From assembly GCA_016219005.1 (NCBI GenBank), contig JACRCN010000084.1, forward strand, positions 73,042 through 137,041: 64,000 nucleotides of DNA, given 5' to 3'. The position numbers and the translations under genes were made by a program. Positions 24,769-42,227 of the stretch are shown piece after piece. How positions within the stretch are numbered: position 1 is the stretch's first letter; every line of letters starts with the position of its first letter. The notes beneath the pieces are model-generated. The model made no database searches. It was not told the DNA's origin and saw nothing but the letters and a program-made list of their open reading frames with translations. The stretch comes from Deltaproteobacteria bacterium (GTDB taxonomy: Bacteria > Desulfobacterota > Desulfobacteria > Desulfobacterales > SpSt-501).

Positions 24769-24788
24769 ATTTTTGAAATGGCTTCTAT
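24769..24788. repeat. Direct repeat copy B (ATTTTTGAAATGGCTTCTAT)
   Basis: 19/20 identical to 20248-20267. It overlaps the wrbA stop codon. Confidence 0.6.
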
Positions 24789-25387
24789 GCTGATTGCTTC
24801 TTAGCTACTTCCGCAACGTGGGCTCCCTGGAATCGAGCGATTTTTATTTCGTTCTCTGACGGTTGACGACTGCCATCGACGCCAGCAAGAGTGCTCGCTC
24901 CATAGGGGGATCCGCCGGTGATTTCACTCATGTTCATGATTTCCTGGCAGGAATAGGGAACTCCCACCACTATCATGCCGTGATGCAACAAGGTGGAGTG
25001 AAACGAGGTGATCGTGGTTTCCTGTCCGCCGTGCTGCGTGCCCGTGGACGTGAACACGCTGCCCACCTTGCCGATCAAGTCGCCTTTCAGCCACAACCGG
25101 CCGGTCTGGTCGAGAAAATTGCGCATCTGCGCGCACATGTTGCCAAAACGTGTCGGCGTGCCAAAAATGATGGCATCGTAGTTCGGCAACTCGTCAACCG
25201 CCGCGATCCCCGCCGCCTGATCGAGCTTGGCACCGGCTTTTCGTGCCACGTCTTCCGGCATCAGATCGGGCACGCGCTTGATGATGACCTCGGCGCCTTT
25301 GACGCTGCGCGCGCCCTCAGCCACCGCTTTCGCCATGGTTTCTATGTGGCCATACATGCTGTAGTAAAGAACGAGAACTTTTGGCAT
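24785..25387 (-). CDS. wrbA: NAD(P)H:quinone oxidoreductase WrbA (flavodoxin-like)
   Basis: '[22 protein letters not shown]' and '[10 protein letters not shown]'. A GAGGAG ribosome-binding site sits upstream. Confidence 0.9.
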
Positions 25388-25410
25388 GCTGTATCTCCTC
25401 TAGTGGTTTT

Positions 25411-25426
25411 TTGCGCAATTTGCAAA
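25411..25426. promoter_or_regulatory. Two abutting 8-bp palindromes TTGCGCAA and TTTGCAAA upstream of wrbA
   Basis: Read directly, 24-39 nt upstream of the wrbA start codon. Confidence 0.3.
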
Positions 25427-25890
25427 CGACTGCCACTTGGGACAGGAATTACCCCAACGGTCCGTGTTTGTTTGTTGGTTCTGCATCCCGGCACAGCTAA
25501 ATAAAAAAAATGAGATGAGCACAACCCACGCCACTGGCATAAATGTTTTCATTTTAGCAGCCCTATTGCCGGATGGTTATCGAATGGCTTCCTACCGGAG
25601 CTCAAACGGAGAACATCAGGCACGCTCGGAATTGCAGCGATCGTTCCTTGGCGGTAAATCTGGGGCATTACCCAATCCCTGTCAAGGGGGGATGATGATA
25701 GAAATTTATGGATTCTGCAGGGTTATCGGGAGAAGGAAGATGTCCGCCTCGGCCGATGGGTCCGGTTCGATGAAGTTTCACTGCCGAGTAGGTGGTCAGA
25801 AGGTCTTTTTCGAATACTGCTTTGGGCGGTTCACAATTCCATGTCTCCGGCTTCGCCGGAAGTCACTGACTTTTGGATTGACCCGCGACA

Positions 25891-26343
25891 TCAAAGGCTT
25901 CGTTCCAAGTTAATGATTTTGGAGGGGCTGAATTGGTTCGCGCTAAAGAAATGAATCAGTTTGGTATCATTCCAGTCGACCAAGGTGTTGATTTTTTGAA
26001 CGCCGAGTGTTCTCAAATGATCCATAAATTCATTGATCAACTGCTTACCGATACCCTTATGCTGGCAATAGGGATCGACGCCGATGGTATCCAGTGTTGC
26101 TTTTTCCTTGGAAATACCATATTCTCCTATGTAGAGTTCCCCCATTACAAAACCCACCACCGTGCCATCTTGGTCCTCGGCCACCAGCGACGCGGGCAAA
26201 TAATCTTTGGTTTGAAAAAGCTTTTCAAACTTCAGCTCATAGTACTCCGGCCGGGGCGTTTTAAGCACTTTCTCGTCAATCCCAACCACAGCGTCAAAAT
26301 CGCCGGCCTTCATGAGTCTGATTTTAATGGCGCTCTCGTTCAT
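25891..26343 (-). CDS. GNAT-family N-acetyltransferase
   Basis: 'VGFVMGE' and the 'QHKGIGKQLI' acetyl-CoA-binding motif. Its ATG overlaps the upstream stop (ATGA at 26340-26343). Confidence 0.8.
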   Translation of the reverse strand: MNESAIKIRLMKAGDFDAVVGIDEKVLKTPRPEYYELKFEKLFQTKDYLPASLVAEDQDGTVVGFVMGELYIGEYGISKEKATLDTIGVDPYCQHKGIGKQLINEFMDHLRTLGVQKINTLVDWNDTKLIHFFSANQFSPSKIINLERSL

Positions 26344-27185
26344 GAAGCTCCTTTCTCTTTACTCTTTCTGATGATGGTTCTTTCTGCTTCAGGAAGAGGA
26401 GGCGGAACAGGCTCGCCGGAAATCGTCTTCACCGCACCAAAGCGAGGGGGGCAGGCATCAAAGCAAGTTCCGCATTTTATGCATTTTTCCTGGTCAATTA
26501 CATGGATCCGGTTTTTGCCGCCCGCAATTGCCTCTACCGGGCATTTTTTAAGGCAAATCATACAGGCCTGGCACTTTTCCGGATCAATATGGTACGAGAT
26601 TACTTCACGAAATAACCGGTCTACCTCCTCACGGGTGAAAAGACCGTCATATTCTGCCTTGTTTTCAAGGCGTGACTCCAGCTTCTCCCTTTTAACTATC
26701 TTGATGTAGGGGGTGAGCTTTGCAACTTCTTGAATTTTAGACTTTAATTCATTTTTATCTATTCCTTCGCTTTTGCCAAGCGGTCCTAACTCCTTCACCT
26801 TTCGGCCAAAATCATTAATAACGTCGGCAAAGAGGATTCCTTCGCCGCCCGACATAAATTCAATCCTTAACCGTTCTGGGTTCAACCCTATGTGCTCCAA
26901 TATTTTTTTACCTAGAAGCACCATGTTAAGTGCATGATAATTTCCATGAGTAATATAATTGCATTCCTTTAAACGGCAACCACCAATAAACACCCCGTCC
27001 ATCCCATTTGAGAAAGCCCGGAGCACGAAGGACAGGTCGACTCTACCGGAACACATGACACGAACAAGCCTGATTTCAGGCGGATATTGCAGTCTGGAAA
27101 CTCCAGCCAGGTCAGCCGCGCCGTAGGCTCACCAATGGCATACAAAACCTATCATTTTGGGTCTGAATACAAGTCCTGCACTCAT
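26340..27185 (-). CDS. bamF: BamF-like MvhD-domain protein fused to a 2x[4Fe-4S] ferredoxin; predicted selenoprotein (in-frame TGA at 27129-27131)
   Basis: Reading from the ATG at 27185 (GGTGA ribosome-binding site upstream) gives 'MSAGLVFRPKMIGFVCHW-TGA-AYGAADLAGVSRLQYPPEIRLVRVMCSGRVD...', in frame with the 26340..27056 ORF. This matches the MvhD 'CxWC-SYxGAD' N-terminus with the second Cys replaced by TGA. C-terminal motifs are 'CQACMICLKKCP' and 'CIKCGTCFDACP'. Confidence 0.8.
27094..27106 (-). other. Hairpin downstream of the bamF-like TGA (bacterial SECIS candidate)
   Basis: On the minus-strand RNA, CUGGA-GUU-UCCAG starts 22 nt after the UGA. Only the core stem is reported; the extended structure was not resolved by eye. 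Confidence 0.35.
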
Positions 27186-27237: not shown

Positions 27238-30200
27238 CTACACATCCCCAAGCGCTGCATCAATTTGGCTCAAGAGCTCTGCATCGGTGAAATGCTTTAG
27301 GGTAATAGCGCCTGTCGGGCACCGTGCATTACAGAGACCATCTCCTTTGCAGATGACAGGATTAACTACTGCTTTTTTGCCCTGTCGTGTCTCGCGAAAC
27401 TCTATGGCATCATACGTACAGGCGGATATACATGCCCCGCACCCCGTACACTTTTTCTGATCCACTTCGCAAACAGAACCGGAGGCGATGACCGTATCGT
27501 GTGAGAGAAGCGTTAAGACCCGGCCGGCCGCTCCATACGCCTGGCTGATCGCTTCCGGCATATGCTTGGGATATTGAGCCATTCCACAAAGATAAACGCC
27601 GTCTGCCGCAAACTCCACCGGTTTCAATTTGACATGGGCTTCTTTGAAAAAATCATCCGGTCCCAAAGAGACCTTGAATAATCCTGCTACTTCCTTGGCT
27701 CCCGCGGAAGGAATAACGGCGGCAGCCAGGGCGAGGCAATCGGCATCTATCGCAAGCTTCTTGCCCAAAATATAATCGGTCACGGCAATCCTCAGGCGAG
27801 ACGTGCCACCCTCCTTAACGGTCTCCACCAGAGGCTTATCCAGCGGATCATAGCGGATGAACTTCACCTCCCTATTCGACGCTTCCCGGTAATAATCCTC
27901 ACTGAACCCATATGTCATCATGTCCCGATAGAGGATGTAGATATCCATCAGGGGATTTATCTCTTTCAGTTTCAATGCGTTCTTTATCGACACGCTGCAA
28001 CAGATCCTGCTGCAGTAATTTCTGTCTTCATTTCTGCAGCCTACGCATTGGATCATCACGAGACTTTCTGCGCTAATTATCTTTTCGTCTCCTTTGCTGA
28101 TCCGCTCCTCCAACTCAAGGTGGGTTATTACCCGGTCATCTTCCCCATATAGGTATTCGGTGGGCTTATATATATCAGCACCTATAGCAATGACGGCGGC
28201 ACCATGTTTTATCTCTTCGACCCCTCTTTCAGAATTCACCTTGGTTACGAAATTCCCAACATAACCCGTAGCCTCCGTGATGGTGGCATCCGTATATACA
28301 TGTACGGAGGGGTGTCGATATACTTTTTCTACAAGATCACGCAAATACGCCTGAACATCACGCCCATCCAGGGTGTAATGAATTCTGCGTGCCATTCCCC
28401 CCAGGTCCTTATTCTTTTCCACCAGGAAAACCTCGTGTCCCTGGTTGGCAATGGAAAGAGCACACGTCATGCCGGATACACCGCCACCCACCACTAACGC
28501 CGTCTTGTTTACGGGTAGGTCCAATTCCTGCAATGGCTCCAAATGGCACGCGCGTGCCACCGACATCCGGATTATATCCTTTGCCTTCTGTGTGGCTTCT
28601 TCCTTTTCTTTAGAATGGACCCAGGAGTTATGTTCCCTTATATTGGCCATTTCGAAGTAATACTGATTGATTCCCGCCTCCCGAAGGGTGTCCCGGAATA
28701 ACGGTTCAAGGGTCCTGGGGCTGCAGGCAGCGACTATCACCCGATTGAGCCCTTTTTCCTTTATAATGTCCGTTATTTCTTTGGCACAATTTGAAGCGCA
28801 TGAAAACAGCTGTTCCTGAGCGTAGACAACATGGGGTAAGGTCAAGGCATATTCAACTGTGGAAGGAACACTTACGACTCTTCCGATATTCGCCCCGCAA
28901 TGGCACACAAAGACCCCTATCCGGGGTTCTTCCCTGGAGACATCCTTCTCCGGCGGATAAATCCTTTCCTGGGTCAGCTTCCCTCGCCGGTAGTCAAGGA
29001 GTTCACCACATTGGGAGCCGGCTCCGCTGGCGGTAAAAACCGACTCGGGAATATCGGTGGGACCCTGGAAGGCCCCGCTTACAAAGATCCCGGGCCGGGT
29101 GGTCGAAAGGGGATTGGAAGGAATTGCTTTACAGAATCCGTGTGAATTGAGCTCGATTCCGAACTTATCCGCCAGATCCTCATAATCCGCAGGTGGATTC
29201 AATCCAACGGATAATACCACAAGATCGAATTCTTCCTCCTTTACCCCGTCCTCGGTCGTAGCGTATCGTATCGTTACATTCTTGCTTTCCTGGATCTCTT
29301 TCCCGATTGAGACATAGCTTCTTATAAATCGGACCCCGGGAAGGTTCTCCGCTCTTTGGTAAAAGCGTTCGAAATCTTTTCCGTAGGAACGAATATCGTT
29401 ATGGAATATGGTACACTCCGCCCCGGCGTCATGATCCTTTGTCAAAATCACCTGTTTCTGGGTATAAGTGCAGCATACGGCTGAGCAATAGCTGTTATCG
29501 CCCGGGGTAACCCGTCTGGAACCGACGCATTGAATCCAGGCTGTTTTATGGGGATGCTTTTTGTCGGAAGGGCGCAGGATCTCACCTTCGTATGGCCCGG
29601 TGGAGCATAACAGTCGTTCATAGTCCATACTGGTGACCACGTTCTGCATCTTCCCGTAGCCATAGTCGCCCTTCACCCCAGGGTCAAATGGCTCAAGCCC
29701 GGGAGACAGAATTATCGAAGCAACCTTAATTTCTATCTTCTCCGGCTTTTGCTGAAAATCAATGGCATCATTTTTACAGACGCCTTCGCAGATACGACAC
29801 TTCTTCTCTTTAAGGTAGAGACAGCTTTCATCGATATATGCGACAAGGGGAATCGCTTGGGAGTAGTATATATGGACGGCTTTATTTTTCGATATTTCCT
29901 GATTAAAAGAATCAGGGTATTTGACGGGGCAGTATTCTACACATGTAGTACAACCCGTGCATTTGTCTTCTAAAATGTATCGGGGTTTTTTAAGCAGGGT
30001 TACCTTGAAGTCCCCTGCCTCTCCTTCGACACTGTCGATTTCAGTTAACGTCAGGATCTCTACATTGGGATGCCGGCCGACCTCGACCAGTTTGGGCGAG
30101 AGTATTCACATGGAACAGTCGTTGGTTGGAAAGGTCTTGTCAAGCTGCGCCATATGGCCGCCGATGGCTGGTGCTTTCTCAACCAGGTAAACCTTGAAAC

Positions 30201-30336
30201 CGGCAATGGCAAGATCGAGGGAGGCCTGAATACCGGAAATTCCTCCACCCACCACCATTACATCCCCAAAATTAGTATTCACAAGACCTTTACAAAACAG
30301 TTGAACTTTTTCTTCAAGCAACAGTTCTTTTTGCAC
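27238..30336 (-). CDS. bamE: BamE-like double HdrA-type flavoprotein/FeS protein (about 1030 codons); predicted selenoprotein (in-frame TGA at 30106-30108)
   Basis: I translated 30336 to 29676 by hand. It reads '...[16 protein letters not shown]...[33 protein letters not shown]...[12 protein letters not shown]...[11 protein letters not shown]...' with no other stop and runs into the 27238..29676 ORF in the same frame. There are two FAD GxGxxG sites, the HdrA motifs 'CSAVCC' and 'CSRICC', and a C-terminal 2x[4Fe-4S]. The GTG start has a GAGGTGA ribosome-binding site. Confidence 0.85.
30073..30090 (-). other. Hairpin downstream of the bamE-like TGA (bacterial SECIS candidate)
   Basis: On the minus-strand RNA, CUGGUC-GAGGUC-GGCCGG forms a 6-bp stem (including G-U pairs) starting 15 nt after the UGA. 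The loop contains GGUC, reminiscent of the E. coli fdhF SECIS apical loop. Confidence 0.45.
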
Positions 30337-30404: not shown

Positions 30405-31556
30405 CTAAATAACTTCCTGTATGATCTCGGTGATGTCCTTAATTTCTATTTTATCGGCAACACCAATGGTTGACCTGCTATCCTCGAAATTGGCGATGCA
30501 ATAAGGGCAGGAAGTAACCAGCACCTCGGCTCCGACACCGATCGCCTGTTCCAACCTCAAATCGGAGAATCTTTCACCCTTTGGAGTTTCCATCCAAATC
30601 CGGCCGCCTCCCCCTCCGCAACAGAGGCTATCACTGCGCGATTCTGGCATCTCAATCAGTTCCAGACCAGGTACCTTCTTCAAGACCTCCCGGGGTTCGT
30701 CATATATGCCGTTGTGCCGACCCAGGTAACATGGGTCGTGATAAGTAACTTTCTTCCGATACGCCTTGTTAAGCTCAAGCCTTCCTGCATTCATGAGCTG
30801 GAATAAATATTGCGCGATATGAACCACCTCAAAGTCCACCCTAAATTCGGGATACTCGTTCTTGAAGCTATGGTAGCAATGAGGGGAAGAAACAAGGATT
30901 TTTTTCACCCCATTATCGATAAACGCTTTGATATTTTCCTTGGCCAAGCGTTTGAATAAATCCTCATCGCCGGTCTTGCGGATGCTCTCTCCGCAGCAAT
31001 TCTCCTTGGATCCCAGTATGCCGTAATGAACAGCCGCTCGGTTAAGAATAGTGGCGGTAGCCGCCGCCGCCTTTTTCAATCTTGGGTCATAGCTGGGGTA
31101 GCAGCAGGGGAAATATAATATTTCGGTGCCCTCGGCGAAGGTTTTTACAGAAAGACCTTCAGCCCAATTTGACCTATTATTGCGCTCTTCATTCAGAGGG
31201 TTACCGCGGCCACGGAGGCTCGCGCTCACGGTGCGGATAGGTCGAACCGGACCCGGGAAAACCCCGTATTCCGTGGCAAGCTTGCGTAAGGCTACCCCGG
31301 ATTCGATCTGTTTTACGTCCCGGGGGCATTGCTGAGGGCATCTTCCGCAGGTCGTACAACGCCAAATATCTTCACTTTCTATATCCGTCAAACCGAACGC
31401 AGCTTCGCGGACTATCTTGCGCATGCTGAAGATTCTAATCCTATTCCATGGGCAAACCACATCGCATAAGCCGCATTGAAAGCACGATTTGAAGGCTTCT
31501 CCACCTTTGGCTTTGATGGCATCTACGATCTCTTTAAAATCAGCTACATTCTCCAC
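30405..31556 (-). CDS. bamD: BamD-like HdrD-type FeS protein (2x[4Fe-4S] plus two CCG domains)
   Basis: 'CFQCGLCDVVCP', 'CTTCGRCPQQCP'; CCG-domain motifs 'PCCY', 'CCGES', 'DPCYLGR', 'CCGGGGG'. Confidence 0.8.
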   Translation of the reverse strand: MENVADFKEIVDAIKAKGGEAFKSCFQCGLCDVVCPWNRIRIFSMRKIVREAAFGLTDIESEDIWRCTTCGRCPQQCPRDVKQIESGVALRKLATEYGVFPGPVRPIRTVSASLRGRGNPLNEERNNRSNWAEGLSVKTFAEGTEILYFPCCYPSYDPRLKKAAAATATILNRAAVHYGILGSKENCCGESIRKTGDEDLFKRLAKENIKAFIDNGVKKILVSSPHCYHSFKNEYPEFRVDFEVVHIAQYLFQLMNAGRLELNKAYRKKVTYHDPCYLGRHNGIYDEPREVLKKVPGLELIEMPESRSDSLCCGGGGGRIWMETPKGERFSDLRLEQAIGVGAEVLVTSCPYCIANFEDSRSTIGVADKIEIKDITEIIQEVI

Positions 31557-31591: not shown

Positions 31592-32140
31592 TTAGCCCTT
31601 CTTGGAGATTGACATCCGGGCGACGGTTTCCATTATCTTGTCAAGTCCAAATTTGTTTACCAACGATTCCAATCCTGTCTTCAACTCTTCTGCGTTCGCT
31701 TCTTCTTCTACTTCCTCTTCTCTTTCTTCGTAGATCAGGGCATCCGTTATGCACCACTGAACGCACAAGGGCTCTGATAAAGGCGGATCGCTTAAACACA
31801 TATCGCATTTTAGCGGCAGACCGGAATCGGGCTCCTTGAAAAGATCCCTGGATGGGCAGGAAGCCCTGCAGAAGGCACACTCTTCGTATTCCTTTCCGTC
31901 AATCGTGTACTTGTCTCGGCCCATGCATTCGGCTTTAGCATACTCACCCGCATATACAGGAACATATATGTCTTTTAACGGTTCATGAATAACACGAATA
32001 CGAGACCTCGCTGGATTGTTGCTGCTGTATTTCGGCGCAGCGTGGAAGGCGGAGCAGGCTAGCTCACATGCCCGGCAACCGTTGCATTTATCAACATCAA
32101 CTTTTATTGATTTAACAATTTTCTTTTTTTTCTCACCCAT
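31592..32140 (-). CDS. bamC: BamC-like polyferredoxin subunit
   Basis: 'CNGCRACELAC', 'CAFCRASCP', 'CDMC...CVQWC'. Size and position directly after the AOR-like gene fit. Confidence 0.75.
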   Translation of the reverse strand: MGEKKKKIVKSIKVDVDKCNGCRACELACSAFHAAPKYSSNNPARSRIRVIHEPLKDIYVPVYAGEYAKAECMGRDKYTIDGKEYEECAFCRASCPSRDLFKEPDSGLPLKCDMCLSDPPLSEPLCVQWCITDALIYEEREEEVEEEANAEELKTGLESLVNKFGLDKIMETVARMSISKKG

Positions 32141-32161: not shown

Positions 32162-34165
32162 TTAATTCTCTCTGCTTCCGCTGAAGTCTTTGGCGGGCTC
32201 GTCTTGACTATCCGCCAAGATCCCCCGCTTAACAAAGTCTTCGATCACGTAATCCAAACCAAGATCATGCAAGGATTCCTTAGTAGGAATACCCTGATGA
32301 TTCCACCCCTTGAATTTGTAATACGCATCCAGGAGCTCTTTTTCAAGGTCGGGAAATCTTTTCTTCCAATGGTTCACTGGAGGCTTATCATCTTTTCTCC
32401 GCATGCCTCTTCTTATATTAATGGCCCTAACTAAAGTTCGGTACCTTTTGACTGCTTGCGTCAGTTTAGCTTCATCCATATCGATCCCGGCACCGGATGA
32501 GATAAATTGCGGGAAATTGTGCATATGATATGGAGGCTTCAGAGGAAATGATGACAAACCGGCGCACATCCCGAGGGCGTCATCGATATAGTGCATCCGC
32601 TCCTGCCAGTCGACAATGTTACAACTCATTTCAACCGTCGGATAATAGGGGATCGATTTTTCTCCGCGTGGTTCCCAGTCCAAGAAATATTGCTTAAACT
32701 TTTCATCAGGAACCTGGACCCAATCCTTTACAAACGCTTCTCTCTCTTCTCTGGTAGCAAAAGGCGCCTGGGGGAACTGGCCTTCGATTTGGGTAATGTT
32801 TATCTTCTCACCGGTGGAATACATAAGAAAATAAATTGGATTCAGCATGGATAGCTTGAGAGGCAGCTGCTCATGTTTTTTGATGTTATTATGAGCATAT
32901 GCTTCTGCGCCCTTACCAATCTGTTGGGCCGCCCAATAGGTGCCTTTGGCTAAAACATCCCCTATCCCTTCACGCCGAACAATTCTGTCAAGTAACCAAT
33001 AAAATTTCCCCTCGTTATCGGACGGCATTCCCGACATGTCATCGTCAGTTAAAATGGCGGCTTCGTAGAGCTCAAGGGCGAAGGCCATAACTTGCGGGGT
33101 TGAGTATGCGTCCACTCCATACTCCGTAGCACGTTGAGCGATTTTTAAGCCAAAATCCAAATCAGACATGGCCGCCATTGTATAAGTAAGTTTCGAGAAG
33201 CATTTCATCATGTAGGTTGGAAGCCCTGGGACGGAAAGGGTTGCCCCGCATTTCATCGGACAGTTATAGCAGCTGATTAGCCGCGTCCGCGCGCTTTCCA
33301 TGGTCCCCGTCCACTTCTTTTCGACTTCCTCGTTCCAAAAATCTTTTCTGCGAATGCGGGAATTTCCCCACATGAAATTCTCGGTATGCCACTTCTCATC
33401 ATGCACTTTCATCTCTTGCGGTGACCCCAGCCCAGCTAAAATGGGCATTACCCCCGGAATTGGGTTTTTTTCGCGGTGTTTTATGTATTTCAGCACTTCG
33501 TTGCAAAGCTCCATGAATGCATCCGGTCGGGCAATATGGACATCTTTTGTTCCACGAACGACTATGGCCTTTAACCCTTTGTCTCCCATTACGGCGCCTA
33601 TTCCGCCTCGGCTGGCGCTGGACCGGCCCTGCTCGATGGAAGCAAAATAAACCCTGTTTTCACCGGCCAAACCGATAGCCGCCACCTGGGCTTTCGGCTC
33701 CTTCAACTCCTGTCGGATGAGTTCCGCAGTTTCAACAGCGCCTTTACCCCGCAAATGCGAGGCGTCACGTAATTCTACCTTGTCGTTGTTTATCCACAGA
33801 TAAACCAGACTGGCGGACTTGCCGCGAAGGATCACTTTGTCGTAACCGGCATACTTCAATTCCGGTGCCCAAAATCCACCCATCATTGAAAATGCCATTA
33901 ACAACGTCTGAGGCGAAATGGTGGAAACAATGGTACGATTACAACCGGTAGCCGGTGTACCGCATAAAAGACCGGCGCTGAATATGAGTAGATTATCGGG
34001 AGAAAAAGGTTCAACTTCAGGAGGAACCCTGTCCCACAATATCTTGGCGTTAGTGCCTAGCCCCCCCAGATAAAGTTCGGTATCCCTTGGGTCGGTTGCG
34101 ACCCTCTCAATGTTTCCTCGGGATAGGTCAACTTCTAAATTAAACCCTGTCTCTGCGTACCTCAA
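32162..34165 (-). CDS. bamB: BamB-like tungsten/molybdopterin aldehyde:ferredoxin-oxidoreductase-family subunit (class II benzoyl-CoA reductase active-site subunit or close paralogue)
   Basis: The N-terminus 'MRYAETGFNLEVDLSRGNIERVATDPRDTELYLGGLGTNAKILWDRVPPEV' matches my recollection of Geobacter BamB closely. The AOR-family length is 667 aa. The TTG start at 34165 has a GGAGAAAG ribosome-binding site. Confidence 0.8.
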   Translation of the reverse strand: MRYAETGFNLEVDLSRGNIERVATDPRDTELYLGGLGTNAKILWDRVPPEVEPFSPDNLLIFSAGLLCGTPATGCNRTIVSTISPQTLLMAFSMMGGFWAPELKYAGYDKVILRGKSASLVYLWINNDKVELRDASHLRGKGAVETAELIRQELKEPKAQVAAIGLAGENRVYFASIEQGRSSASRGGIGAVMGDKGLKAIVVRGTKDVHIARPDAFMELCNEVLKYIKHREKNPIPGVMPILAGLGSPQEMKVHDEKWHTENFMWGNSRIRRKDFWNEEVEKKWTGTMESARTRLISCYNCPMKCGATLSVPGLPTYMMKCFSKLTYTMAAMSDLDFGLKIAQRATEYGVDAYSTPQVMAFALELYEAAILTDDDMSGMPSDNEGKFYWLLDRIVRREGIGDVLAKGTYWAAQQIGKGAEAYAHNNIKKHEQLPLKLSMLNPIYFLMYSTGEKINITQIEGQFPQAPFATREEREAFVKDWVQVPDEKFKQYFLDWEPRGEKSIPYYPTVEMSCNIVDWQERMHYIDDALGMCAGLSSFPLKPPYHMHNFPQFISSGAGIDMDEAKLTQAVKRYRTLVRAINIRRGMRRKDDKPPVNHWKKRFPDLEKELLDAYYKFKGWNHQGIPTKESLHDLGLDYVIEDFVKRGILADSQDEPAKDFSGSREN

Positions 34166-34290: not shown

Positions 34291-34329
34291 CTATAAATTA
34301 ACTATAAAATAGCTATATTGTATTTATAG
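34291..34329. promoter_or_regulatory. AT-rich nested palindrome / operator-like element at the predicted bamB transcription start
   Basis: Outer arms are CTATAAA (34291-34297) and TTTATAG (34323-34329). The central perfect palindrome is ATAGCTAT (34309-34316). Confidence 0.35.
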
Positions 34330-34351
34330 GAGGTTCCTCGGATTTTGTCAA
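34323..34351 (-). promoter_or_regulatory. Sigma-70-type promoter candidate for the bamB-like operon
   Basis: On the minus strand: TTGACA (34351-34346), a 17-nt spacer, then TATAAA (34328-34323). It lies about 150 nt upstream of the bamB-like start. Confidence 0.5.
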
Positions 34352-34618
34352 GAAAAAAACTCATCGGAGGGGAATTGCGGAATTCAGGAATCGACGGCTC
34401 TGGATCAGCGCCAGTTCCGCTATCGAAGGCGACGAACTTCCGTATGGCAGGTGAAATGTGGTGGCCAAATCGGCTGTAAGCGGAAGCCGACTGCGGGGGC
34501 GCATGCCTACCGCTTATGGCCAGAGCCTGAGAAAGGACCTCGCAGCCTCTGCCCTCCAGCCTGCGGCGAATCGCAACCGCCTTCCAAGCCGCACCAGCAG
34601 ACGGGGTTTTATAACAGC

Positions 34619-34960
34619 CTATTTGGCCCGGCTGCGGGCATAGGTCAGCCCGCCGGTCACCTCGATCGTGGTCGCGTTGATGGCATCGTTTTCGATGCAG
34701 TGCATGATGCTGGCCGCGATCTCCTCGGGTTCCACCAGTCTTCCGCTGTGGACGTCCTTCAGGATGGCCGCGAGCGCTTCCGGGTTCATGCCTCTCAGGA
34801 TCGCCGTGTTGACATAGCCCGGCGCGATCGCCACCACCCGGATGTTGCGGATCTTGCGGATCACGAACTCGCCCACCAGGATCTTCGGCATCAGGGCCAC
34901 GGCCGCCTTGGTGGCGCTGTAGTTGAGCTGGCCGACCTGGCCCTCCTTGTTGATGGAGGA
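34619..34960 (-). pseudogene. 3' remnant of a short-chain dehydrogenase/reductase (SDR) gene
   Basis: The open frame '..SSINKEGQVGQLNYSATKAAVALMPKIL...IRVVAIAPGYVNT...' contains the SDR YxxxK catalytic motif and the C-terminal half only. An in-frame TGA at 34961-34963 stops it, and no Rossmann TGxxxGxG region lies upstream. The fragment is high-GC, unlike its surroundings. Confidence 0.65.
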
Positions 34961-34986
34961 TCAGCATGGCCTCCGTAAGCAGCCAT

Positions 34987-35024
34987 AAAAAAGGGGAGAG
35001 CAGGTCTTATTTCCGCTCTCCCCC
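34987..35024 (-). terminator. Rho-independent terminator ending the TRAP/CoA-transferase operon
   Basis: On the minus strand: GGGGAGAGC, a 13-nt loop, GCTCTCCCC, then TTTTTT (the A-run at 34987-34992 on plus). Confidence 0.75.
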
Positions 35025-35081
35025 GGGTTCCAAAACATGACAGGGATGTTCACCATGGCAGCAATTACTCTGATCTATTTT

Positions 35082-35216
35082 TCATTTGTGCTTTTGGATC
35101 AGCTCGATATACACCCCGTTCAGCTCTCTTTGTTCGATCACCGCAATCTTTGTACCTCTCGACCCATCGACGATCTTGCCCCATACGAATTCCATGTGAA
35201 AGGATTCAGCGGCCAT
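35082..35216 (-). pseudogene. Possible 3' remnant of a methylmalonyl-CoA-epimerase/VOC-family gene
   Basis: The tail 'FHMEFVWGKIVDGSRGTKIAVIEQRELNGVYIELIQKHK' resembles VOC/epimerase C-termini ('..G.KIAF.....GV.IEL..'). The upstream part of the frame overlaps dctM and is not VOC-like. Confidence 0.3.
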
Positions 35217-36531
35217 ACATGCTGGCCGGTATGACGGTTGAAATCCACGGGAAAGCAAAGAGAATGGCAATGCCGAAAGCCTCGAAGAGCAAAAACCAGA
35301 AACAACCCCTGAAGATCTCGTGCATGGGTACATCCCGGACGACACCGGCTAAGACATAGACATTGAGCCCCACCGGCGGCGTCATCAGCCCGACTTCAGC
35401 CATCTTGACGCACAGGACCCCGAACCAGATGGGATCGTAACCCAGCTGGGTGGTGACGATCGGAAACATGATGGGTTGGGTGATGATGAGCATTGAGAAA
35501 GTATCCATGAACATTCCCAGGGGTATATAGACGATCAAGAAACCCGTCACGATCATCCAGGGCGATACCGGCAGACCGCCCACCCAACCCGATATGACTT
35601 GGGGAACCTGGGCCAGGGTAAGAAACTTGGCGTAGAGTCCGGCGCCGATCAGGATCATGAAAACCATGCAGCTCGTGCGGAGGGTGTCGAAGAAACAGAG
35701 CTTGATGTTTCCCCCCATCATCCCCTTCTCCACTCGCCCCCCGAACAGCATCATCAGCAACGCGACAAAAGCGCCCACGGAAGCGGCTTCGGTAGGGGTG
35801 AACCAGCCGATGTACATGCCCCCGATCACCAGGAAGAACAAAAGGGCCATTCCCCAAACCCCTTTGAGGGAAGCAAACCGCTCCCGCCAGGTGTAGTTCT
35901 CCGGCGCGGGACACAGGTTGGGATAGATCCGGGTCAGGAAGAAAAGCCCAATGACGTAAACAAATACGCTCAACACCCCGGGCAGGATCCCGGCGATGAG
36001 TTGCGCGCCGGCCGAGACATCGTTGATCGATGCATAAAAAACGGAGACAACGCTCGGCGGGATCAGAATGGCCAGGGTCCCGGAAGCGGCCACGATGCCG
36101 CAGGCCAGTTTCCGATCGTACCCCAAGGCTCGCATTTCGGGGATGGCAATCGCCCCCATGGTAGCGGCGGAGGCAACGCTCGATCCGCAGCAGGCGCCAA
36201 ATCCCGCCGAAGCGATGAAGGTGGCGATGCCGAGCCCGCCCGGGAGTTTGGAAAACCACTTCCGGCCGATGGTGTAAAGATCGCTGCTGATGCCGGCTTT
36301 GAATCCGAAATGCCCCATAATGATAAAAAGCGGCACCACGGCTAAGAGGTAATTGGCCGTATTCGCGTAAGGAGAGACCTTCAATACGGTCAGGGCATAG
36401 TAGGGGCCTTTCAAGGCAAGGATACCCAGAACACCAGTGATACCCAGAGAGGCATAAATCGGCATCCCCATCCACATCAGAGCCAGCACCAAAAAGACGC
36501 TGAGAATAGACGCAGTTCCGGGTTCGATCAT
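35206..36531 (-). CDS. dctM: TRAP transporter large permease (DctM family)
   Basis: A polytopic membrane protein of typical DctM sequence. The start was moved to the ATG at 36531, preceded by GGAGG. Confidence 0.88.
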   Translation of the reverse strand: MIEPGTASILSVFLVLALMWMGMPIYASLGITGVLGILALKGPYYALTVLKVSPYANTANYLLAVVPLFIIMGHFGFKAGISSDLYTIGRKWFSKLPGGLGIATFIASAGFGACCGSSVASAATMGAIAIPEMRALGYDRKLACGIVAASGTLAILIPPSVVSVFYASINDVSAGAQLIAGILPGVLSVFVYVIGLFFLTRIYPNLCPAPENYTWRERFASLKGVWGMALLFFLVIGGMYIGWFTPTEAASVGAFVALLMMLFGGRVEKGMMGGNIKLCFFDTLRTSCMVFMILIGAGLYAKFLTLAQVPQVISGWVGGLPVSPWMIVTGFLIVYIPLGMFMDTFSMLIITQPIMFPIVTTQLGYDPIWFGVLCVKMAEVGLMTPPVGLNVYVLAGVVRDVPMHEIFRGCFWFLLFEAFGIAILFAFPWISTVIPASMYGR

Positions 36532-36593
36532 CTTATTCCCTCCATAAACAGTCAGATGTTGGACCAATCATCTCGAACCGATAGGGATACCGC

Positions 36594-37124
36594 TCAATCA
36601 CCGATCTGACGCAGGTCGGGCAGATCGAGAGGTAATGCCCCCATGAGCCGGCGGAAGTTCACCCAAATGTCGACCACCAACTGGAGGCAGGTCAGCCAGC
36701 ACCCCAGGGGGACGAGAGCTTTGGCCCACCAGATCTGCATTTGCACCGAACCCCAGCGGAATTCGTTGATTTCATAAGACCGAAGAGCTTCCCTGGCGCT
36801 TTGCCATCCCATGACAGCCAGAAAAATAAAACAGAGGACCCAGCAGAGCGTATCCAGTTTGATCGCGCTGCGGATTGAAAACCTTCTCAGCCCCAGGACA
36901 ACCCGCGTGTGTCCTCTGGCCTCTTGGGTCCAGCTGAGGGTCATAAACACGGCGATGACCAACAGTACCTCATTGAACTCGAAGACCCCGGCAATAGGAT
37001 AATTGAAAACGTAACGACTGGTAGTATCCAGGGTGGTGCTTATCATCATCATGGCGATCGCGGCCGCAGCAATGAAGCTGAAGAATATATTGATTTTATT
37101 GAGCCAGCGCGCAAGGTTCTCCAT
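36594..37124 (-). CDS. dctQ: TRAP transporter small permease (DctQ family)
   Basis: A 4-TM protein of about 176 aa between the dctP-like and dctM-like genes. Confidence 0.8.
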   Translation of the reverse strand: MENLARWLNKINIFFSFIAAAAIAMMMISTTLDTTSRYVFNYPIAGVFEFNEVLLVIAVFMTLSWTQEARGHTRVVLGLRRFSIRSAIKLDTLCWVLCFIFLAVMGWQSAREALRSYEINEFRWGSVQMQIWWAKALVPLGCWLTCLQLVVDIWVNFRRLMGALPLDLPDLRQIGD

Positions 37125-37204
37125 CTCGCAATATACCTCCCCTTGGGAAGGCAGCCGGAACGAATTAGGACATCCGCCCGGCTACCTTCATAGCACCATC
37201 GTTT

Positions 37205-38338
37205 TTACTTTTTTTCGTACTTCGCCTGATAGATTTCATAGGGATTTTTGAGCTTGCCCTGCGGCTCATACTTGGCGATGAGGCTGCGTGCTTTATCGAT
37301 GAATTCGACCCCATTGTACTTCGCTGGCTTGGCGACCTTTTCGGCCCAGTCGTTCACCTGCGCCGGCTGCACCATGCTGGTGGCCTTTTTGATCTCTTCA
37401 TCCGACCACTTTGTGAATTTGGCACCGTTCTTGACCATGACATCGAGGCTTTCTTCCAGAAGCTTGTTGTACAACTCGACATACTTGTATTTGTAAACGT
37501 CATCCGCGGTTTTTTTAAATACATCCTTCAGGTCGTCGGGCAGGGAATTCCACACGTCCAGGCCCATGACCACCGTGGTGGGCGCATGGGCCCCGGCGCC
37601 GACTTCGATAATGTTGGGAGCCTGCTCATAGAGCTTCGCTTTTTCGGCCGTGACAAAGCAAAACGCGAAGACTCCGTCGAGAATCCCGCGCTCCAACGAC
37701 TGATAGACTTCCGCGGCCACCACGGGCATTCCCCTTCCTCCCAGGCGGTCGATGGTTTCAGCACCAATTCCGTAGCCTCGGATTCTCATCCCCTTGAGTT
37801 CGGAGACTTGAGTGAGGGGCTTTTTGGAAAAAAGCGGGCAATAATCCCAGTTGGTGAAATACAGGACTTTGCAGCCGTTTCTTTTTTCCCACTCATCCTT
37901 CAGAGGGGGATAGGTATCGTACATTTCCTGGCAGACCTTCAGCAGGGTGTCGGCGTGGTTGCAGCCCATGAAGTACCACTCCAATCCTCGGCTGAGCGGC
38001 ACCTGGGCAGGATAATAGCCGTAAGAAATCAGGGATAATTCTGAAAGCCCGTCCCTGACCGCCTGCAAATGTTCTCCCACTTTGTGAAGGGAGGATGCCC
38101 AATATTTTTCGATTTTGATCCGGCCGCCGGATCGTTCCACCACTGTGTCGAGATACCAGTTGTCAAGCTGGGCCGGGGCCGCTGACGCTTGGATGTAGCA
38201 GTCGTACTTCATGGTAATGACTTTGCCCGACTGCGGTGCGGCGTGCAAGATGCCCCGGGCCGGGCCCATGAGGAGTCCCCCCATGGCGGCTGCAGCGGTT
38301 GATTTCAGAAATGTCCTTCGATCCATTCCCTTGCCCAT
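37205..38338 (-). CDS. dctP: TRAP transporter substrate-binding protein (DctP family)
   Basis: Twin-arginine-like signal 'MDRRTFLKSTAAAAMGG' and DctP-like length and sequence. Confidence 0.85.
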   Translation of the reverse strand: MGKGMDRRTFLKSTAAAAMGGLLMGPARGILHAAPQSGKVITMKYDCYIQASAAPAQLDNWYLDTVVERSGGRIKIEKYWASSLHKVGEHLQAVRDGLSELSLISYGYYPAQVPLSRGLEWYFMGCNHADTLLKVCQEMYDTYPPLKDEWEKRNGCKVLYFTNWDYCPLFSKKPLTQVSELKGMRIRGYGIGAETIDRLGGRGMPVVAAEVYQSLERGILDGVFAFCFVTAEKAKLYEQAPNIIEVGAGAHAPTTVVMGLDVWNSLPDDLKDVFKKTADDVYKYKYVELYNKLLEESLDVMVKNGAKFTKWSDEEIKKATSMVQPAQVNDWAEKVAKPAKYNGVEFIDKARSLIAKYEPQGKLKNPYEIYQAKYEKK

Positions 38339-38397
38339 GTTTCATTCCTCCTTCCTTGGGTTAAAGGCTCAGTGAAGCCCAGTCCAATTTCCCGAAA

Positions 38398-38811
38398 TCA
38401 GGGTTTAAAAACCAAAGAGGTCTGCCGCGCATGCCCCTCCCCCTTGGAAGCAAAATCAGCTTGGAGCGGCATTCCCACCCGGATCTGATCGGGGTTCCTT
38501 GCATCCACGCCTGTGATCCGCGACACGGCCTTGACACCTTCGTCCAATTCCACCACACCGACAACGTATGGATTGTTCCGGCCGAAGCCTTCCCGGGCCA
38601 TCGCCGGCGGGGCCACCACGATGCTGGTGAAGCCCGCCAGCTTGCCCTTACCTTTCAATTCCACCCATTCCAGATCGCTGCCATGGCACGAAACGCAGAT
38701 GGGTCGTGGCGGCAGCGCGAGTGCGCTGCACTTTTTACAGCGCGAGCCCATGATCCGGCGGTCGTTGAGATACTGCTCGTAGGAGGCGTCATTAAAAGGC
38801 CTTTTCTCCAT
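38398..38811 (-). CDS. Zn-ribbon/OB-fold protein (DUF35 family), thiolase partner
   Basis: 'CKKCSALALPPRPICVSC' zinc ribbon followed by an OB fold. The ATG at 38811 has a GGAGAGGAGG ribosome-binding site. It directly follows the thiolase-like gene. Confidence 0.8.
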   Translation of the reverse strand: MEKRPFNDASYEQYLNDRRIMGSRCKKCSALALPPRPICVSCHGSDLEWVELKGKGKLAGFTSIVVAPPAMAREGFGRNNPYVVGVVELDEGVKAVSRITGVDARNPDQIRVGMPLQADFASKGEGHARQTSLVFKP

Positions 38812-38815
38812 GATG

Positions 38816-40081
38816 TTACCTCCTCTCCAGAATGGTGAAGGTGCAGGTCCCGCCGGTTCCCCCGAGGTTATGCGCCGCGCCGATGCGCAGGTTGGGGTTG
38901 GGGACCTGTCTATTGCCGGCCTGGCCCCGCAACTGGGTCCAGACCTCGTAGAGTTGGGCAACCCCTGTTGCACCCACGGGATGGCCTTTCGATTTGAGGC
39001 CTCCTGAAGTATTGATGGGCCTGGGGCCGTCGAGGCGGGTCATCCCGTCGGCCACGGCTCTGTGGGCTTGCCCCGGTTTAACAAAACCCAGATCCTCCAT
39101 GGTCACGAGTTCGGCGATGGAGAAGCAGTCGTGGACCTCTGAAAACTGTATGTCGTTCGGGGTCAGGCCGGACATTTCATAGGCCGCGTTGCCTGCCGCA
39201 CGGGTGGCCTCATAGCTTGTGAGATCTTTTTTGGCATGGAGGCTGTAACCGCTGCCCTGGCCCAATCCGGCCACGTGGATCGGCACATCCGTGAAGTTGC
39301 GAGCCATGTCTTCGGCTACCAGGAGCATGCAGGCCGCTCCGTCGCTGATGGGACAGCAGTCAAAGAGATGCATGGGCCAGGCTACCGGCGGGTTCGCCGC
39401 AGGGTCCGCAAGATAGGCCTTCTCGTCCTTCCAGGCGGGGACGGGCTCTGCCTTTTTCTTGGACCTTTCGATCCGGGCGTTCATGAAATCCCGGACGGTC
39501 ATTGGAAACTGGGCCTTGGGGTTAAGCGGGGCGTTATTGTGGCTTTTGATGGTCACGTTAAAAAGCGCTTCCCGGGTGGCCCCGTACTTGGCGAAATAGG
39601 CGGTCGCCATCGTCCCGAAAACCCCGGGGAAGGTGAATCCCGCCGCCACTTCGTACGGACTCGCCGCCATCGCTAATCCCTCGGCCACTTCTTCGGTCGA
39701 ACATTTTGACATCTGCTCGAAGCCGCCTACCAGCACGATGTCATACATTCCCGAGGCGATGGCCAGCACCCCTTCCCGGAACGCCAGGGCGCTGGACGCG
39801 CAGGCGCCTTCCGTGCGGGTGACGGGCTTGGGCACGTTCCCCAGCAGATCGGCTATGATCGGGGCCCAGTGGGATTGTTTCACAAAAAAATCATTGGTAA
39901 AGTTTCCGACATAGACCGCATCGATATCTTTCGGGTCGATGCCCTTGTCCACGGAGTTGACCATTTCCGTGTAGGCTTCGGCAAAGAAATCCTTGCAGTT
40001 GCGGTCTTTGAAAAGGCCCAACTTGGTCAGTCCGCCGCCGACAACCGCAACTCCCCGGGCCAACTTTCGTTTTCTTGCCAT
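38816..40081 (-). CDS. Thiolase-superfamily protein (SCP-x/BbsB-like non-canonical thiolase)
   Basis: 'RGVAVVGGGLTKLG', active-site 'EGACASSALAF', C-terminal 'HNLGGTGG'. The start was moved to the ATG at 40081, preceded by AGGAGG. Confidence 0.85.
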   Translation of the reverse strand: MARKRKLARGVAVVGGGLTKLGLFKDRNCKDFFAEAYTEMVNSVDKGIDPKDIDAVYVGNFTNDFFVKQSHWAPIIADLLGNVPKPVTRTEGACASSALAFREGVLAIASGMYDIVLVGGFEQMSKCSTEEVAEGLAMAASPYEVAAGFTFPGVFGTMATAYFAKYGATREALFNVTIKSHNNAPLNPKAQFPMTVRDFMNARIERSKKKAEPVPAWKDEKAYLADPAANPPVAWPMHLFDCCPISDGAACMLLVAEDMARNFTDVPIHVAGLGQGSGYSLHAKKDLTSYEATRAAGNAAYEMSGLTPNDIQFSEVHDCFSIAELVTMEDLGFVKPGQAHRAVADGMTRLDGPRPINTSGGLKSKGHPVGATGVAQLYEVWTQLRGQAGNRQVPNPNLRIGAAHNLGGTGGTCTFTILERR

Positions 40082-40156
40082 CGGCTCCTCCTTAACTGCA
40101 CTATGAAAATGCCATGTGGAAGATAATAAGAGTGCTCGCAACTGTTTCCGGTCGGC

Positions 40157-40936
40157 TCATCCCTTGCGGATAATATATCCATCCGGATCAACCTCTTTCC
40201 GAAGGACGTCAAGTTCTTTTTCGGTCGGAGGCGGGGTCGCGACAATATTCTTGGCCTTGAGCAGGGGGAACCCACAATTTTTCTGCACATCCTCGAAGGT
40301 GAAGCCGTGGTGGATGGATTCCACCTGCATGCGCTTGGTCTCCTCATCGTACCCCAGAATGGCCATGTTGGTAATCACTTTATGGGGGCCGCTCTCTTCC
40401 GGCAAACCGGCTTTCTCGCGTGCTCCCGGCCCGTCCAGATAGCCAGGGGAGGTGATGAAGCTGACCTTCTCGACGAAACGCCGGGCATCCTGCGGAGTGA
40501 TCACCAGAATCCTCCAGCAGAAGGAGGCAAAATCGTTGGCACCTCCTGATCCGGGCAGGCGCGCTTTAGGCTTTTCCCAATCCCCGATAACCGTGGAGTT
40601 GAGATTGCCATACATGTCGATTTGGGCCCCCCCGAGAAATGTGTAATCCACCATTCCCCGCTGGCAGCTCTCCATGATATCGCACATGCCGCTGGCCATG
40701 ACACTCCTGTAATAGGACCGAGAGTCTCCCACGGATATGGGCATTTTGCAGAGCACGGGAGCGATTCCCCCGGCCTCAAACATGATGACGAGATCCGGGG
40801 CATGCATCTTATGGGCAAGCATCGAGGCGGCCAGTGGCGCCCCCGTGCCAACCCCTACGGTGGCTCCGTTTTCCAGAATGCGGGAAGCCGCTATCACCAT
40901 CAGTTCCATCGTATTGAATTCAGGCATGGCATTCAC
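40157..40936 (-). CDS. Family I CoA-transferase subunit B (glutaconate CoA-transferase beta-like)
   Basis: 'VGVGTGAPLAA', 'FEAGGI', 'GGAQIDMYGN'. It overlaps the subunit A stop. Confidence 0.8.
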   Translation of the reverse strand: MNAMPEFNTMELMVIAASRILENGATVGVGTGAPLAASMLAHKMHAPDLVIMFEAGGIAPVLCKMPISVGDSRSYYRSVMASGMCDIMESCQRGMVDYTFLGGAQIDMYGNLNSTVIGDWEKPKARLPGSGGANDFASFCWRILVITPQDARRFVEKVSFITSPGYLDGPGAREKAGLPEESGPHKVITNMAILGYDEETKRMQVESIHHGFTFEDVQKNCGFPLLKAKNIVATPPPTEKELDVLRKEVDPDGYIIRKG

Positions 40937-41933
40937 TCCTTTTTGTTCTCAAATCGATCATGTGCTCTTCGGCACGGAGTTGATTGATACGTTTGATGCC
41001 GCCGCAGAGTTCCAGGTACCCCTCGAAGTCCTGCACTCCATAGATGTATTGATCCATGAACTTTTTGAAAGACGCAGGCTCCTTCTCGCTTTCCAACCAG
41101 AGCTTTAGTTGCTCTTCGTCGGAAAAGTACTCATCCACCATGTTTCCCGGGTAGGCGCCGAAGGGGACTTCGCAAACGGCATCGACCAGGAAGTAAGGAA
41201 TCTGGGTGGCTGACGGATCGCGACGGATCTCATCGTTGTGGATCAACCGTTCGCAGGTGATGATCAGCCGCTTGGAAGCCCGGGCCAATTCCAAATCGCA
41301 GACCGATATTCCCTTGAATCGGGCGTTGCCGTAAATGTCCGCCTCGTGAACGTGGATGACCGACACGTCCGGCCATACGGCCGGGTACAGGCAGTAAAGC
41401 TTTCCGGTAAATGGGCACCGGGCGACCTTGGCGGCGCTTCGTTTGAACGTATCCGTCCCCATGACATTGCGCCCCGGAAGGTACGACACGCCCATCGCTG
41501 CCGCCTTCAACCGGAGGGCCAGGGCGTAATTGGTCCATTCACAGAACTGCACCTTTCCGCTCTCGGAGTAACGGCGGGCATTGGGGGAGAGCCCGCGAAT
41601 CTCAACGCCGATGATGTAGGCGATGTCGCAGCGATTGAAGGTTTCTCCCGCAGCCAGAATCTGGTAATCGTGGGTGGAGGTGTGGCCGAAGAAAGCCAGA
41701 TTTTTTCTTCTTTGCCGGACGATTTCGTGGCACGCAGCCACCGGCGTACGGTTGGCGCCGAATCCGCCGATGCACAGATAATCTCCGTCATGAACGAATT
41801 GGGCGATGGCGTCTTTCAGGGGTATCACCTTGTTAGCAAGGGCTCTCTTTTTCTTACGGAAGAATGCTCGCGCCTTGTCAGCGTCCGGGTCCATGAAAAG
41901 AGGCCCTTCACCTTGAGCGATGACTTCATACAT
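40920..41933 (-). CDS. Family I CoA-transferase subunit A (glutaconate CoA-transferase alpha-like)
   Basis: A 337-aa protein with 'GDYLCIGGFG', paired with subunit B. An AAGGAGG ribosome-binding site lies upstream. Confidence 0.8.
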   Translation of the reverse strand: MYEVIAQGEGPLFMDPDADKARAFFRKKKRALANKVIPLKDAIAQFVHDGDYLCIGGFGANRTPVAACHEIVRQRRKNLAFFGHTSTHDYQILAAGETFNRCDIAYIIGVEIRGLSPNARRYSESGKVQFCEWTNYALALRLKAAAMGVSYLPGRNVMGTDTFKRSAAKVARCPFTGKLYCLYPAVWPDVSVIHVHEADIYGNARFKGISVCDLELARASKRLIITCERLIHNDEIRRDPSATQIPYFLVDAVCEVPFGAYPGNMVDEYFSDEEQLKLWLESEKEPASFKKFMDQYIYGVQDFEGYLELCGGIKRINQLRAEEHMIDLRTKRSECHA

Positions 41934-42132
41934 AAAAAAACCTCCTTTGTTGATGTTGCCAGCGGGTGGACAATAGGATCGCTTTTTTTCGGGGTGCCGG
42001 GAGCGGCTGGGTGCGGGGCATCATCTTGGCAGTTGCTCCTTGCTCAGCAGGAGGAGATATCCGCAGTTCGGTCTGCTTCGGACCGTCTTGCCCCTTGCAG
42101 GAGCCAAGGGGGATGGTTAAACCGGTCACTGG

Positions 42133-42148
42133 AGCAATTGGCGTGCCA
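42133..42148 (-). promoter_or_regulatory. Sigma-54 (-24/-12) promoter for the CoA-transferase/thiolase/TRAP operon
   Basis: The minus strand reads TTGGCACGCCAATTGCT, a near-perfect match to YTGGCACGrNNNTTGCW, about 200 nt upstream of the CoA-transferase A start. Confidence 0.75.
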
Positions 42149-42212
42149 ATCCCATGGAAATCATGGCCGTAACAAAACGAGATGAATTATCAATACATTT
42201 CCGCATTCGAAA

Positions 42213-42227
42213 GGTTTTCCGAAAACC
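42213..42227. promoter_or_regulatory. Inverted repeat GGTTTTC-C-GAAAACC upstream of the sigma-54 promoter
   Basis: Perfect 7-bp arms read directly, about 70 nt upstream of the -24 element. Confidence 0.35.

Follow-up and report, generated by a model that had tools for sequence, protein, structure and literature searches.

A probable selenocysteine codon with a downstream SECIS-type hairpin in the bamE-like gene of an uncultured deltaproteobacterium

HdrA and MvhD (also named FrhD) are long-established selenoprotein families of both bacteria and archaea (PMC1794560), and HdrA is listed with the CxxU motif, in which U is selenocysteine (Sec) (PMC9312934). In the genome of Desulfococcus multivorans, BamE, HdrA and MvhD are among five genes in which a UGA lies upstream of a SECIS (selenocysteine insertion sequence), and selA, selB and selD are present (PMC5109826). 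BamE of strain DSM 2059 of this sulfate-reducing deltaproteobacterium (dmul_C24500/10) carries two locus tags owing to its in-frame UGA, with the SECIS after the UGA (PMC5109826). Here we describe the same HdrA-like subunit in a 64-kb stretch of DNA (the window; contig JACRCN010000084.1 of assembly GCA_016219005.1) from a different, uncultured deltaproteobacterium, where the gene is read from the minus strand. The in-frame TGA of this bamE-like gene, at 30108..30106, is very probably a Sec codon with a SECIS-type hairpin downstream. The Sec position and the hairpin are presumably the same as in D. multivorans. The gene is an ordinary new example of an already described selenoprotein family, in a previously unannotated genome; because Sec-containing BamE, HdrA and MvhD have all been published, nothing in it is new in kind.

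The site is the one at which two structural studies of 2026, of the Hdr-Vhu-Fwd assembly of Methanococcus maripaludis and of the class II benzoyl-coenzyme A (CoA) reductase of Geobacter metallireducens, proposed a Cys-x-x-Cys/Sec pair by the bifurcating flavin as a relay. In the archaeon, residue X of PDB 9SFI chain A was modelled as Sec197 of HdrA, in a selenylsulfide with a Cys between cluster A3 and flavin adenine dinucleotide (FAD), and the Cys-Sec197 pair was proposed to be a thiol-selenol electron shuttle (PMC13518236). The window UGA aligns with this X (DCAM-X-ILAPKMV in 9SFI, DCSM-U-ILSPKLV in the window), and the upstream Cys aligns as well, giving a shared DC[AS]M-U-IL[AS]PK[ML]V. 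M. maripaludis HdrA is unlike the window protein in that it comprises one HdrA unit only (658 aa), bears an Fe-S domain at its N terminus and forms part of the Hdr-Vhu-Fwd assembly. In PDB 5ODC, 8RVV and 7BKB the aligned residue is Cys, and in methanogens with Cys197 this residue serves as a ligand to the partner protomer's N-terminal [4Fe-4S] cluster (PMC9012536). The initial annotation had stated that Sec-containing HdrA/BamE proteins are known from methanogens and sulfate reducers, and Sec197 of M. maripaludis (PMC13518236) and the D. multivorans genes (PMC5109826) are such cases.

G. metallireducens resembles the window in its bamBCDEF module, in a BamE that is a fused double HdrA and in an MvhD-like BamF with Sec at residue 19. 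In its BamE, Cys59 and Cys62 form a disulfide at a distance of 3.4 Å from cluster E3 and 13 Å from the bifurcating FAD; this disulfide was proposed to carry the low-potential electron, and BamF of the same complex has Sec19 (bioRxiv 10.64898/2026.04.10.717634). Where this BamE has Cys59-Cys62 the window has Cys74-Sec77, a correspondence drawn from the motif and the numbering: by inference, Cys74-x-x-Sec77 would match Cys59/Cys62 with a 15-residue N-terminal offset. Some homologues of the Cys type do have their second Cys at residue 62. Further differences lie next to and within bamF: G. metallireducens has bamGHI beside bamF where the window has a GNAT gene and wrbA, and BamF of Geobacter, by its description, exceeds MvhD in length by more than 100 aa, the window BamF-like protein being MvhD plus a ferredoxin domain.

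The gene and the elements around its UGA are as follows.
27238..30336, minus strand: bamE-like gene, encoding a fused double HdrA-type flavoprotein of 1032 aa via one UGA; start GTG at 30336, stop TAG
30115..30117, minus strand: TGT codon of the partner Cys74, the Cys of the CxxU pair, invariant in all homologues
30106..30108, minus strand: predicted Sec codon UGA, codon 77, the U of C-S-M-U (CxxU); aligned with TGA, TGC or TGT in related loci and with X (Sec197) of PDB 9SFI chain A
30091..30105, minus strand: spacer AUA CUC UCG CCC AAA, 15 nt between UGA and hairpin
30073..30090, minus strand: SECIS-type hairpin of 18 nt, with 5' arm CUGGUCG (30090..30084), loop AGGU (30083..30080) and 3' arm CGGCCGG (30079..30073)

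Read on the minus strand, 30336 to 27238 is a frame of 1033 codons whose only internal stop is the TGA at codon 77 (context DCSM-U-ILSPK). The sequence GAGGUGA precedes the GTG at 30336 at a suitable distance, and related loci align with the bamE-like protein from residue 1. A mechanical open reading frame (ORF) finder breaks the frame into a 76-aa ORF (30336..30106) and an 812-aa ORF from GTG 29676; the initial annotation had proposed that these are one HdrA-like gene with an in-frame TGA, and the translation, in which the frame continues past a single TGA into the 812-aa ORF, bears this out.

Two sets of relatives were compared at the site: the DNA of 80 loci from a scan of one genome per species, and the 120 best database matches of the protein. 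The aligned codon is TGA in 66 of the 80 loci, TGC in 11 and TGT in three, with no other codon in any of them, and the TGA loci include that of a cultured bacterium, Desulfosporosinus lacus DSM 15449 (L065). Among the homologues that gene callers read through, the aligned residue is Cys in 83/83 motif matches, the full-length proteins reading DCSM-C-IESPKF. The expectation that Cys is the normal residue here, with which the UGA gene had been put forward, thus holds for the annotated proteins, as it does for the 14 loci with TGC or TGT set against the 66 with TGA; and the alignment to Cys- and Sec-containing homologues, proposed as a check that would fail if neither residue stood in the column, gives a column that is strictly Cys or UGA. 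The closest of the 80 loci (L001) has 92% amino acid identity over the N-terminal 454 residues.

These counts bear directly on whether the gene is simply broken, that is, a pseudogene or a normally Cys-encoding HdrA-like gene with a TGA introduced by sequencing or assembly error. TGA is one substitution away from the TGC or TGT carried by 14 related loci, and gene callers do treat such genes as broken. However, the same TGA is found in 66 independently assembled species-level genomes with intact frames downstream, and those genomes show an excess of synonymous change and an invariant downstream hairpin, both described below. We put the probability of a broken gene close to nil, and consider that reading to be, on present comparisons, effectively refuted by conservation.

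A second question is whether translation truly ends at the UGA, leaving two genes: one for an N-terminal FAD-binding fragment of 76 aa and another, downstream, for a protein with an initiation site of its own. ORF finders list precisely these 76-aa and 812-aa ORFs, and some termination at a Sec UGA is usual under selenium limitation. Against two genes stands the stretch that follows the UGA. Its 143 codons hold no in-frame ATG, GTG or TTG in the window and encode a conserved 2x[4Fe-4S] ferredoxin insert that includes CRICEGVC; across 60 orthologues they contain neither a stop codon nor a conserved start position, and their differences from the window are synonymous at 2821 codons and nonsynonymous at 1828. 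A start-less stretch that is conserved and under purifying selection must be translated, and it can be reached only by decoding the UGA. The 76-aa piece, moreover, is merely half of a Rossmann FAD-binding fold. We therefore regard two separate genes as very improbable and favor a single gene read through its UGA.

Further evidence that this UGA is read as Sec comes from the hairpin that follows it. The 18-nt element begins 15 nt after the UGA, with its apical loop AGGU starting 22 nt past the codon; the local fold has it as its centroid structure, and the 18-mer alone has a minimum free energy of −9.1 kcal/mol (RNAfold). The position and letters of the hairpin given in the initial annotation were correct, and so was the fold in outline, but it had been drawn with six base pairs and a 6-nt loop (GAGGUC), to which RNAfold adds one G-C pair, giving seven base pairs and a 4-nt loop. 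The likeness that had been drawn to the apex of the E. coli fdhF SECIS stands in so far as the string GGUC is present in either drawing; it is a resemblance only, with no Rfam match behind it.

In an alignment of 62 TGA-type sequences, the codons with zero entropy at the third position are exactly the six that form the hairpin (CTG GTC GAG GTC GGC CGG), whereas all 53 flanking non-Met codons from −60 to +122 vary, at 0.4–1.8 bits (invariant codons: 6/6 in the hairpin versus 0/53 in the flanks; Fisher p = 2e-8). The spacer has the same length in all 67 TGA-type sequences, and its synonymous sites vary freely, at 0.67–1.43 bits. In the 14 Cys-type genes, by contrast, the same six codons vary at 0.75–1.56 bits and the hairpin cannot form, with a mean minimum free energy of −1.05 kcal/mol versus −9.2 kcal/mol in the TGA type. 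Across the 7-bp stem, in the alignment of all 67 TGA-type sequences, pairing is standard in 399/399 cells. Five of the seven stem pairs never vary; one changes from U.G to U-A through a nonsynonymous Gly-to-Asp change in nine distinct sequences, and one shows a double change from C-G to A-U, in L077 only. The hairpin is thus, as far as comparison of aligned genes can establish, more than chance and under selection at the RNA level: synonymous sites are constrained in UGA-type genes only, and the changes that do occur in the stem keep it paired, which upholds the suggestion that it is SECIS-like.

Bacterial SECIS elements, in the model reportedly set out by Zhang and Gladyshev in 2005, place the apical loop 16–37 nt from the UGA with a G in the loop, and the window hairpin fits this. 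The element also resembles the E. coli fdhF SECIS, the reference bacterial SECIS, which is a hairpin within the coding sequence, close to the UGA on its 3' side, and has a small G/U apical loop at a fixed distance, the window loop having GGU(C). Compared with that element it is shorter and simpler, 18 nt with seven base pairs and a tetraloop, without the bulged U and with a 15-nt spacer; the spacer of the minimal fdhF element is 11 nt. Archaeal SECIS elements lie in untranslated regions, whereas the window element comes right after the UGA. Rare variants of the hairpin occur among the relatives. The copy in L077 (10166..10213) reads AUGGUCG-AGGC-CGACCGU and combines the compensated basal pair (C-G to A-U) with a loop change of U to C, and the loops of L043 and L080 read AGGC and AGAU. 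Either the element does not strictly depend on the loop GU, or these three copies are impaired.

Several observations weigh against a Sec codon with a SECIS, and some of them concern the hairpin as seen in the window by itself. The surrounding 73-nt region, taken as a single sequence, folds no better than its shuffles (z = 0.68), and 42 of the 1968 TGA trinucleotides in the window (2.1%) have a comparable hairpin downstream, defined as lying within 8–25 nt of the TGA with at least 7 bp, −9 kcal/mol or lower and a G in the loop. In window context the pair probability of the hairpin is about 0.5, and it is absent from the minimum free energy fold of the segment from the UGA to +75. No Rfam family, SECIS or otherwise, matches anywhere in the window at gathering thresholds; when matches up to E = 10 were admitted in 29900..30250, the sole one was to an irrelevant snoRNA model (E = 8). 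True covariation is minimal, the observed value being reached in nine of 500 shuffles. The decoding machinery is also missing from the DNA that was scanned: the 64-kb window has no tRNA genes at all and hence no tRNA-Sec, none of 60 related loci scanned has a tRNA-Sec, and selA, selB and selD are absent both from the roughly 50 window ORFs scanned (Pfam, NCBIfam) and from the same 60 related loci. Given the z-score of 0.68 and the 2.1% base rate, the hairpin in a lone sequence is merely suggestive, and it is the comparative data that carry the case; as covariation is thin, the argument for an RNA element lies in synonymous-site conservation that is specific to UGA-type genes.

The missing machinery also leaves room for read-through of another kind, in which the UGA is decoded as Trp or Cys by a near-cognate tRNA or has been reassigned throughout the lineage. 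We consider this very improbable. TGA is the ordinary stop of at least 12 neighbouring genes, among them bamF itself, the GNAT gene, dctM, dctQ and both CoA-transferase genes, and on this ground reassignment was rejected. In addition, a column that is strictly Cys or UGA is the signature of Sec/Cys pairs, the hairpin stands at SECIS distance and is selected only in UGA-type genes, and a solved structure has Sec modelled at the homologous position. A scan of the window for further ORFs broken by one TGA returned nine candidates, all of which look like neighbouring genes or like shadow ORFs of GC-rich DNA, and no candidate has a Cys-type context; the scan is unreliable, as it missed both cases described here owing to extra upstream TGAs.

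The second of these cases, like the first a predicted Sec codon, is the adjacent bamF-like gene.
26340..27185, minus strand: bamF-like gene, encoding 281 aa via one UGA; the product is a [2Fe-2S] adaptor of the MvhD/VhuD type that ends in a 2x[4Fe-4S] ferredoxin domain
27129..27131, minus strand: second predicted Sec UGA, codon 19 of the bamF-like gene, in the context FVCHW-U-AYGAADLAG
27091..27108, minus strand: second hairpin of SECIS type, GGCUGGA-GUU-UCCAG(a)CU, which has a bulged A and begins 20 nt past the UGA (RNAfold)

The product matches NCBIfam VhuD (5e-39) and MvhD of PDB 5ODC_D (2.5e-43), and the TGA stop of the gene overlaps the ATG of the next gene, which encodes a GNAT acetyltransferase. 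At the motif sites of the window and related loci the aligned bamF codon is TGA in 70 of 75 and TGC or TGT in the other five, and in the hairpin core (GCT GGA GTT TCC AGA) synonymous entropy is 0.11–0.55 bits versus 0.5–1.8 in the flanks. That one operon contains two independent UGAs of the Sec/Cys-pair type, both accompanied by a conserved hairpin, is strong indirect evidence for Sec decoding in the organism.

The two sites do not change in step among the relatives. Cys in BamE occurs together with a retained Sec (TGA) in BamF in six loci (L018, L035, L037, L061, L062 and L073), and Cys in both proteins in five (L031, L038, L050, L051 and L076); the combination of Sec BamE with Cys BamF was not seen among the related loci. 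BamF Sec seems to be retained more stubbornly than BamE Sec, as in G. metallireducens. In two loci the bamF-like motif with Sec occurs twice over a few kilobases (L059 at 3303 and 5465; L071 at 13225 and 16878), which suggests local duplication of the MvhD-like gene.

The Sec and Cys types of BamE also differ around the site. Sec-type proteins read U-IL[SA]PKLVEVGR, near archaeal HdrA, and BamE-like proteins of the Cys type have C-IESPKF[IV]EC, in which a further Cys stands nine residues downstream of the site. The Val found at that position in the Sec type is forced by the SECIS, which with its spacer takes up codons +1 to +11 (30073..30105 in the window).

Assignment of these genes to a benzoyl-CoA reductase draws on three further genes on the same strand.
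30405..31556, minus strand: bamD-like gene, encoding an HdrD/HdrBC-type Fe-S protein with CCG domains; NCBIfam TfrB, HdrC, HdrB and DsrK
31592..32140, minus strand: bamC-like gene, encoding a poly-[4Fe-4S] electron-transfer subunit; NCBIfam ferredoxin-type beta subunits; lies between bamB and bamD
32162..34165, minus strand: bamB, encoding the tungsten AOR-family catalytic subunit of class II benzoyl-CoA reductase; matches PDB 4Z3W

The BamB product aligns with G. metallireducens BamB (PDB 4Z3W, 'Benzoyl-CoA reductase'), from residues 1–651 to residues 1–651 (phmmer; 1254.8 bits, E = 0). The bamE-like product has two Pyr_redox_2/FAD Rossmann modules, from residues 25 and 613, plus Fer4 domains; its best NCBIfam families are HdrA2/HdrA, with scores under the equivalog cut-offs, and its N-terminal half matches HdrA chains of solved PDB structures at E = 1e-103 to 5e-121. 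It has the thioredoxin-reductase-like FAD domain, the inserted ferredoxin domain and the predicted Sec in CxxU that characterize the CxxU form of the HdrA family, and, as in BamE, two HdrA units are fused in a protein of about 1000 aa, whose gene stands between bamD and bamF with bamB and bamC upstream. By homology and gene order the operon is the bamBCDEF module of a class II, tungsten-dependent benzoyl-CoA reductase. The window set is not the complete bamBCDEFGHI, no NuoE/F/G-like ORF having been found in the window; the NuoEFG/HydABC-like electron-input module (bamGHI) may be encoded elsewhere in the genome, or differ. After bamF, on the same strand (24785..26343), come the GNAT acetyltransferase, a WrbA-type NAD(P)H:quinone oxidoreductase and then efflux genes.

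In the explanation that we consider very probable, the hairpin acts as a bacterial SECIS inside the coding sequence, 15 nt 3' of the UGA, where it would presumably bind SelB with GTP and Sec-tRNA(Sec). SelB would bring Sec to a ribosome that has the UGA in its A site, and translation would continue to the 1032-aa BamE-type protein; the neighbouring bamF would be recoded likewise. Within the thioredoxin-reductase-like domain that binds FAD, Sec77 would be the second residue of Cys74-x-x-Sec77. Homology with HdrA of M. maripaludis and BamE of G. metallireducens suggests that this pair would cycle between the selenol/thiol and selenenylsulfide states. It would pass low-potential electrons between the bifurcating FAD and a [4Fe-4S] cluster close by, on a path that would lead to the tungsten subunit BamB, which reduces benzoyl-CoA. 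Cys-x-x-Sec is found in most environmental BamE (66/80 species), in contrast to the Cys59-Cys62 of Geobacter, and the Sec and Cys variants of BamE offer a natural test of a disulfide/selenenylsulfide electron relay in flavin-based bifurcation. With Sec the majority state in environmental BamE, selenium availability may bear on anaerobic aromatic degradation.

The chief value of these findings is for annotation: the bamE-like gene should be recorded as one 1032-aa selenoprotein and bamF as one of 281 aa, and not as pseudogenes or fragments. The initial annotation had anticipated that automatic gene calling would split such a gene, and this is what has happened in public data. Among the 120 best database homologues, 32 begin 3' of the UGA site, and they include the closest relatives, which at 77–88% identity are N-terminally truncated gene calls of this kind. 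About a quarter of the closest public homologues are thus visibly mis-called as fragments; Sec-type BamE genes are systematically mis-annotated as truncated proteins in public metagenome and metagenome-assembled genome data.

The bamBCDEF genes stand apart from their surroundings. Only at 26.3–34.2 kb, the bamBCDEF region, does the window resemble all 80 loci at the nucleotide level, with 77–85% identity. This block of 7.9 kb has a GC content of about 48% versus 60–66% in its flanks, and the flanks are unrelated among the loci. The same GC step is seen in the closest relative (L001, 6174..13934), and the loci that share the block are binned to Desulfobacterales, Syntrophales, Dethiobacteria, Thermincola, Desulfosporosinus and Chloroflexota. 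Base composition and the reach of the similarity suggest that the block could be a laterally transferred cassette. A bolder proposal, which we hold only tentatively and think less likely to be right than wrong, is that bamBCDEF, set in a genome of 62–66% GC, is a horizontally mobile two-selenoprotein cassette with a 'universal' 18-nt mini-SECIS. If that were true, the mini-SECIS would be kept unchanged since it is required to work with the SelB of any recipient host.

Upstream of the operon on the same strand (34300..45200) lie genes for a TRAP transporter (DctPQM), a DUF35/OB-fold protein, a thiolase-like protein and two CoA-transferase subunits, together with a sigma-54 activator and its histidine kinase. 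These genes may constitute a regulated uptake and activation pathway that feeds the reductase. About 200 nt upstream of the first CoA-transferase gene, at 42148..42134 on the minus strand, is a perfect sigma-54 −24/−12 consensus, TGGCACGCCAATTGC.

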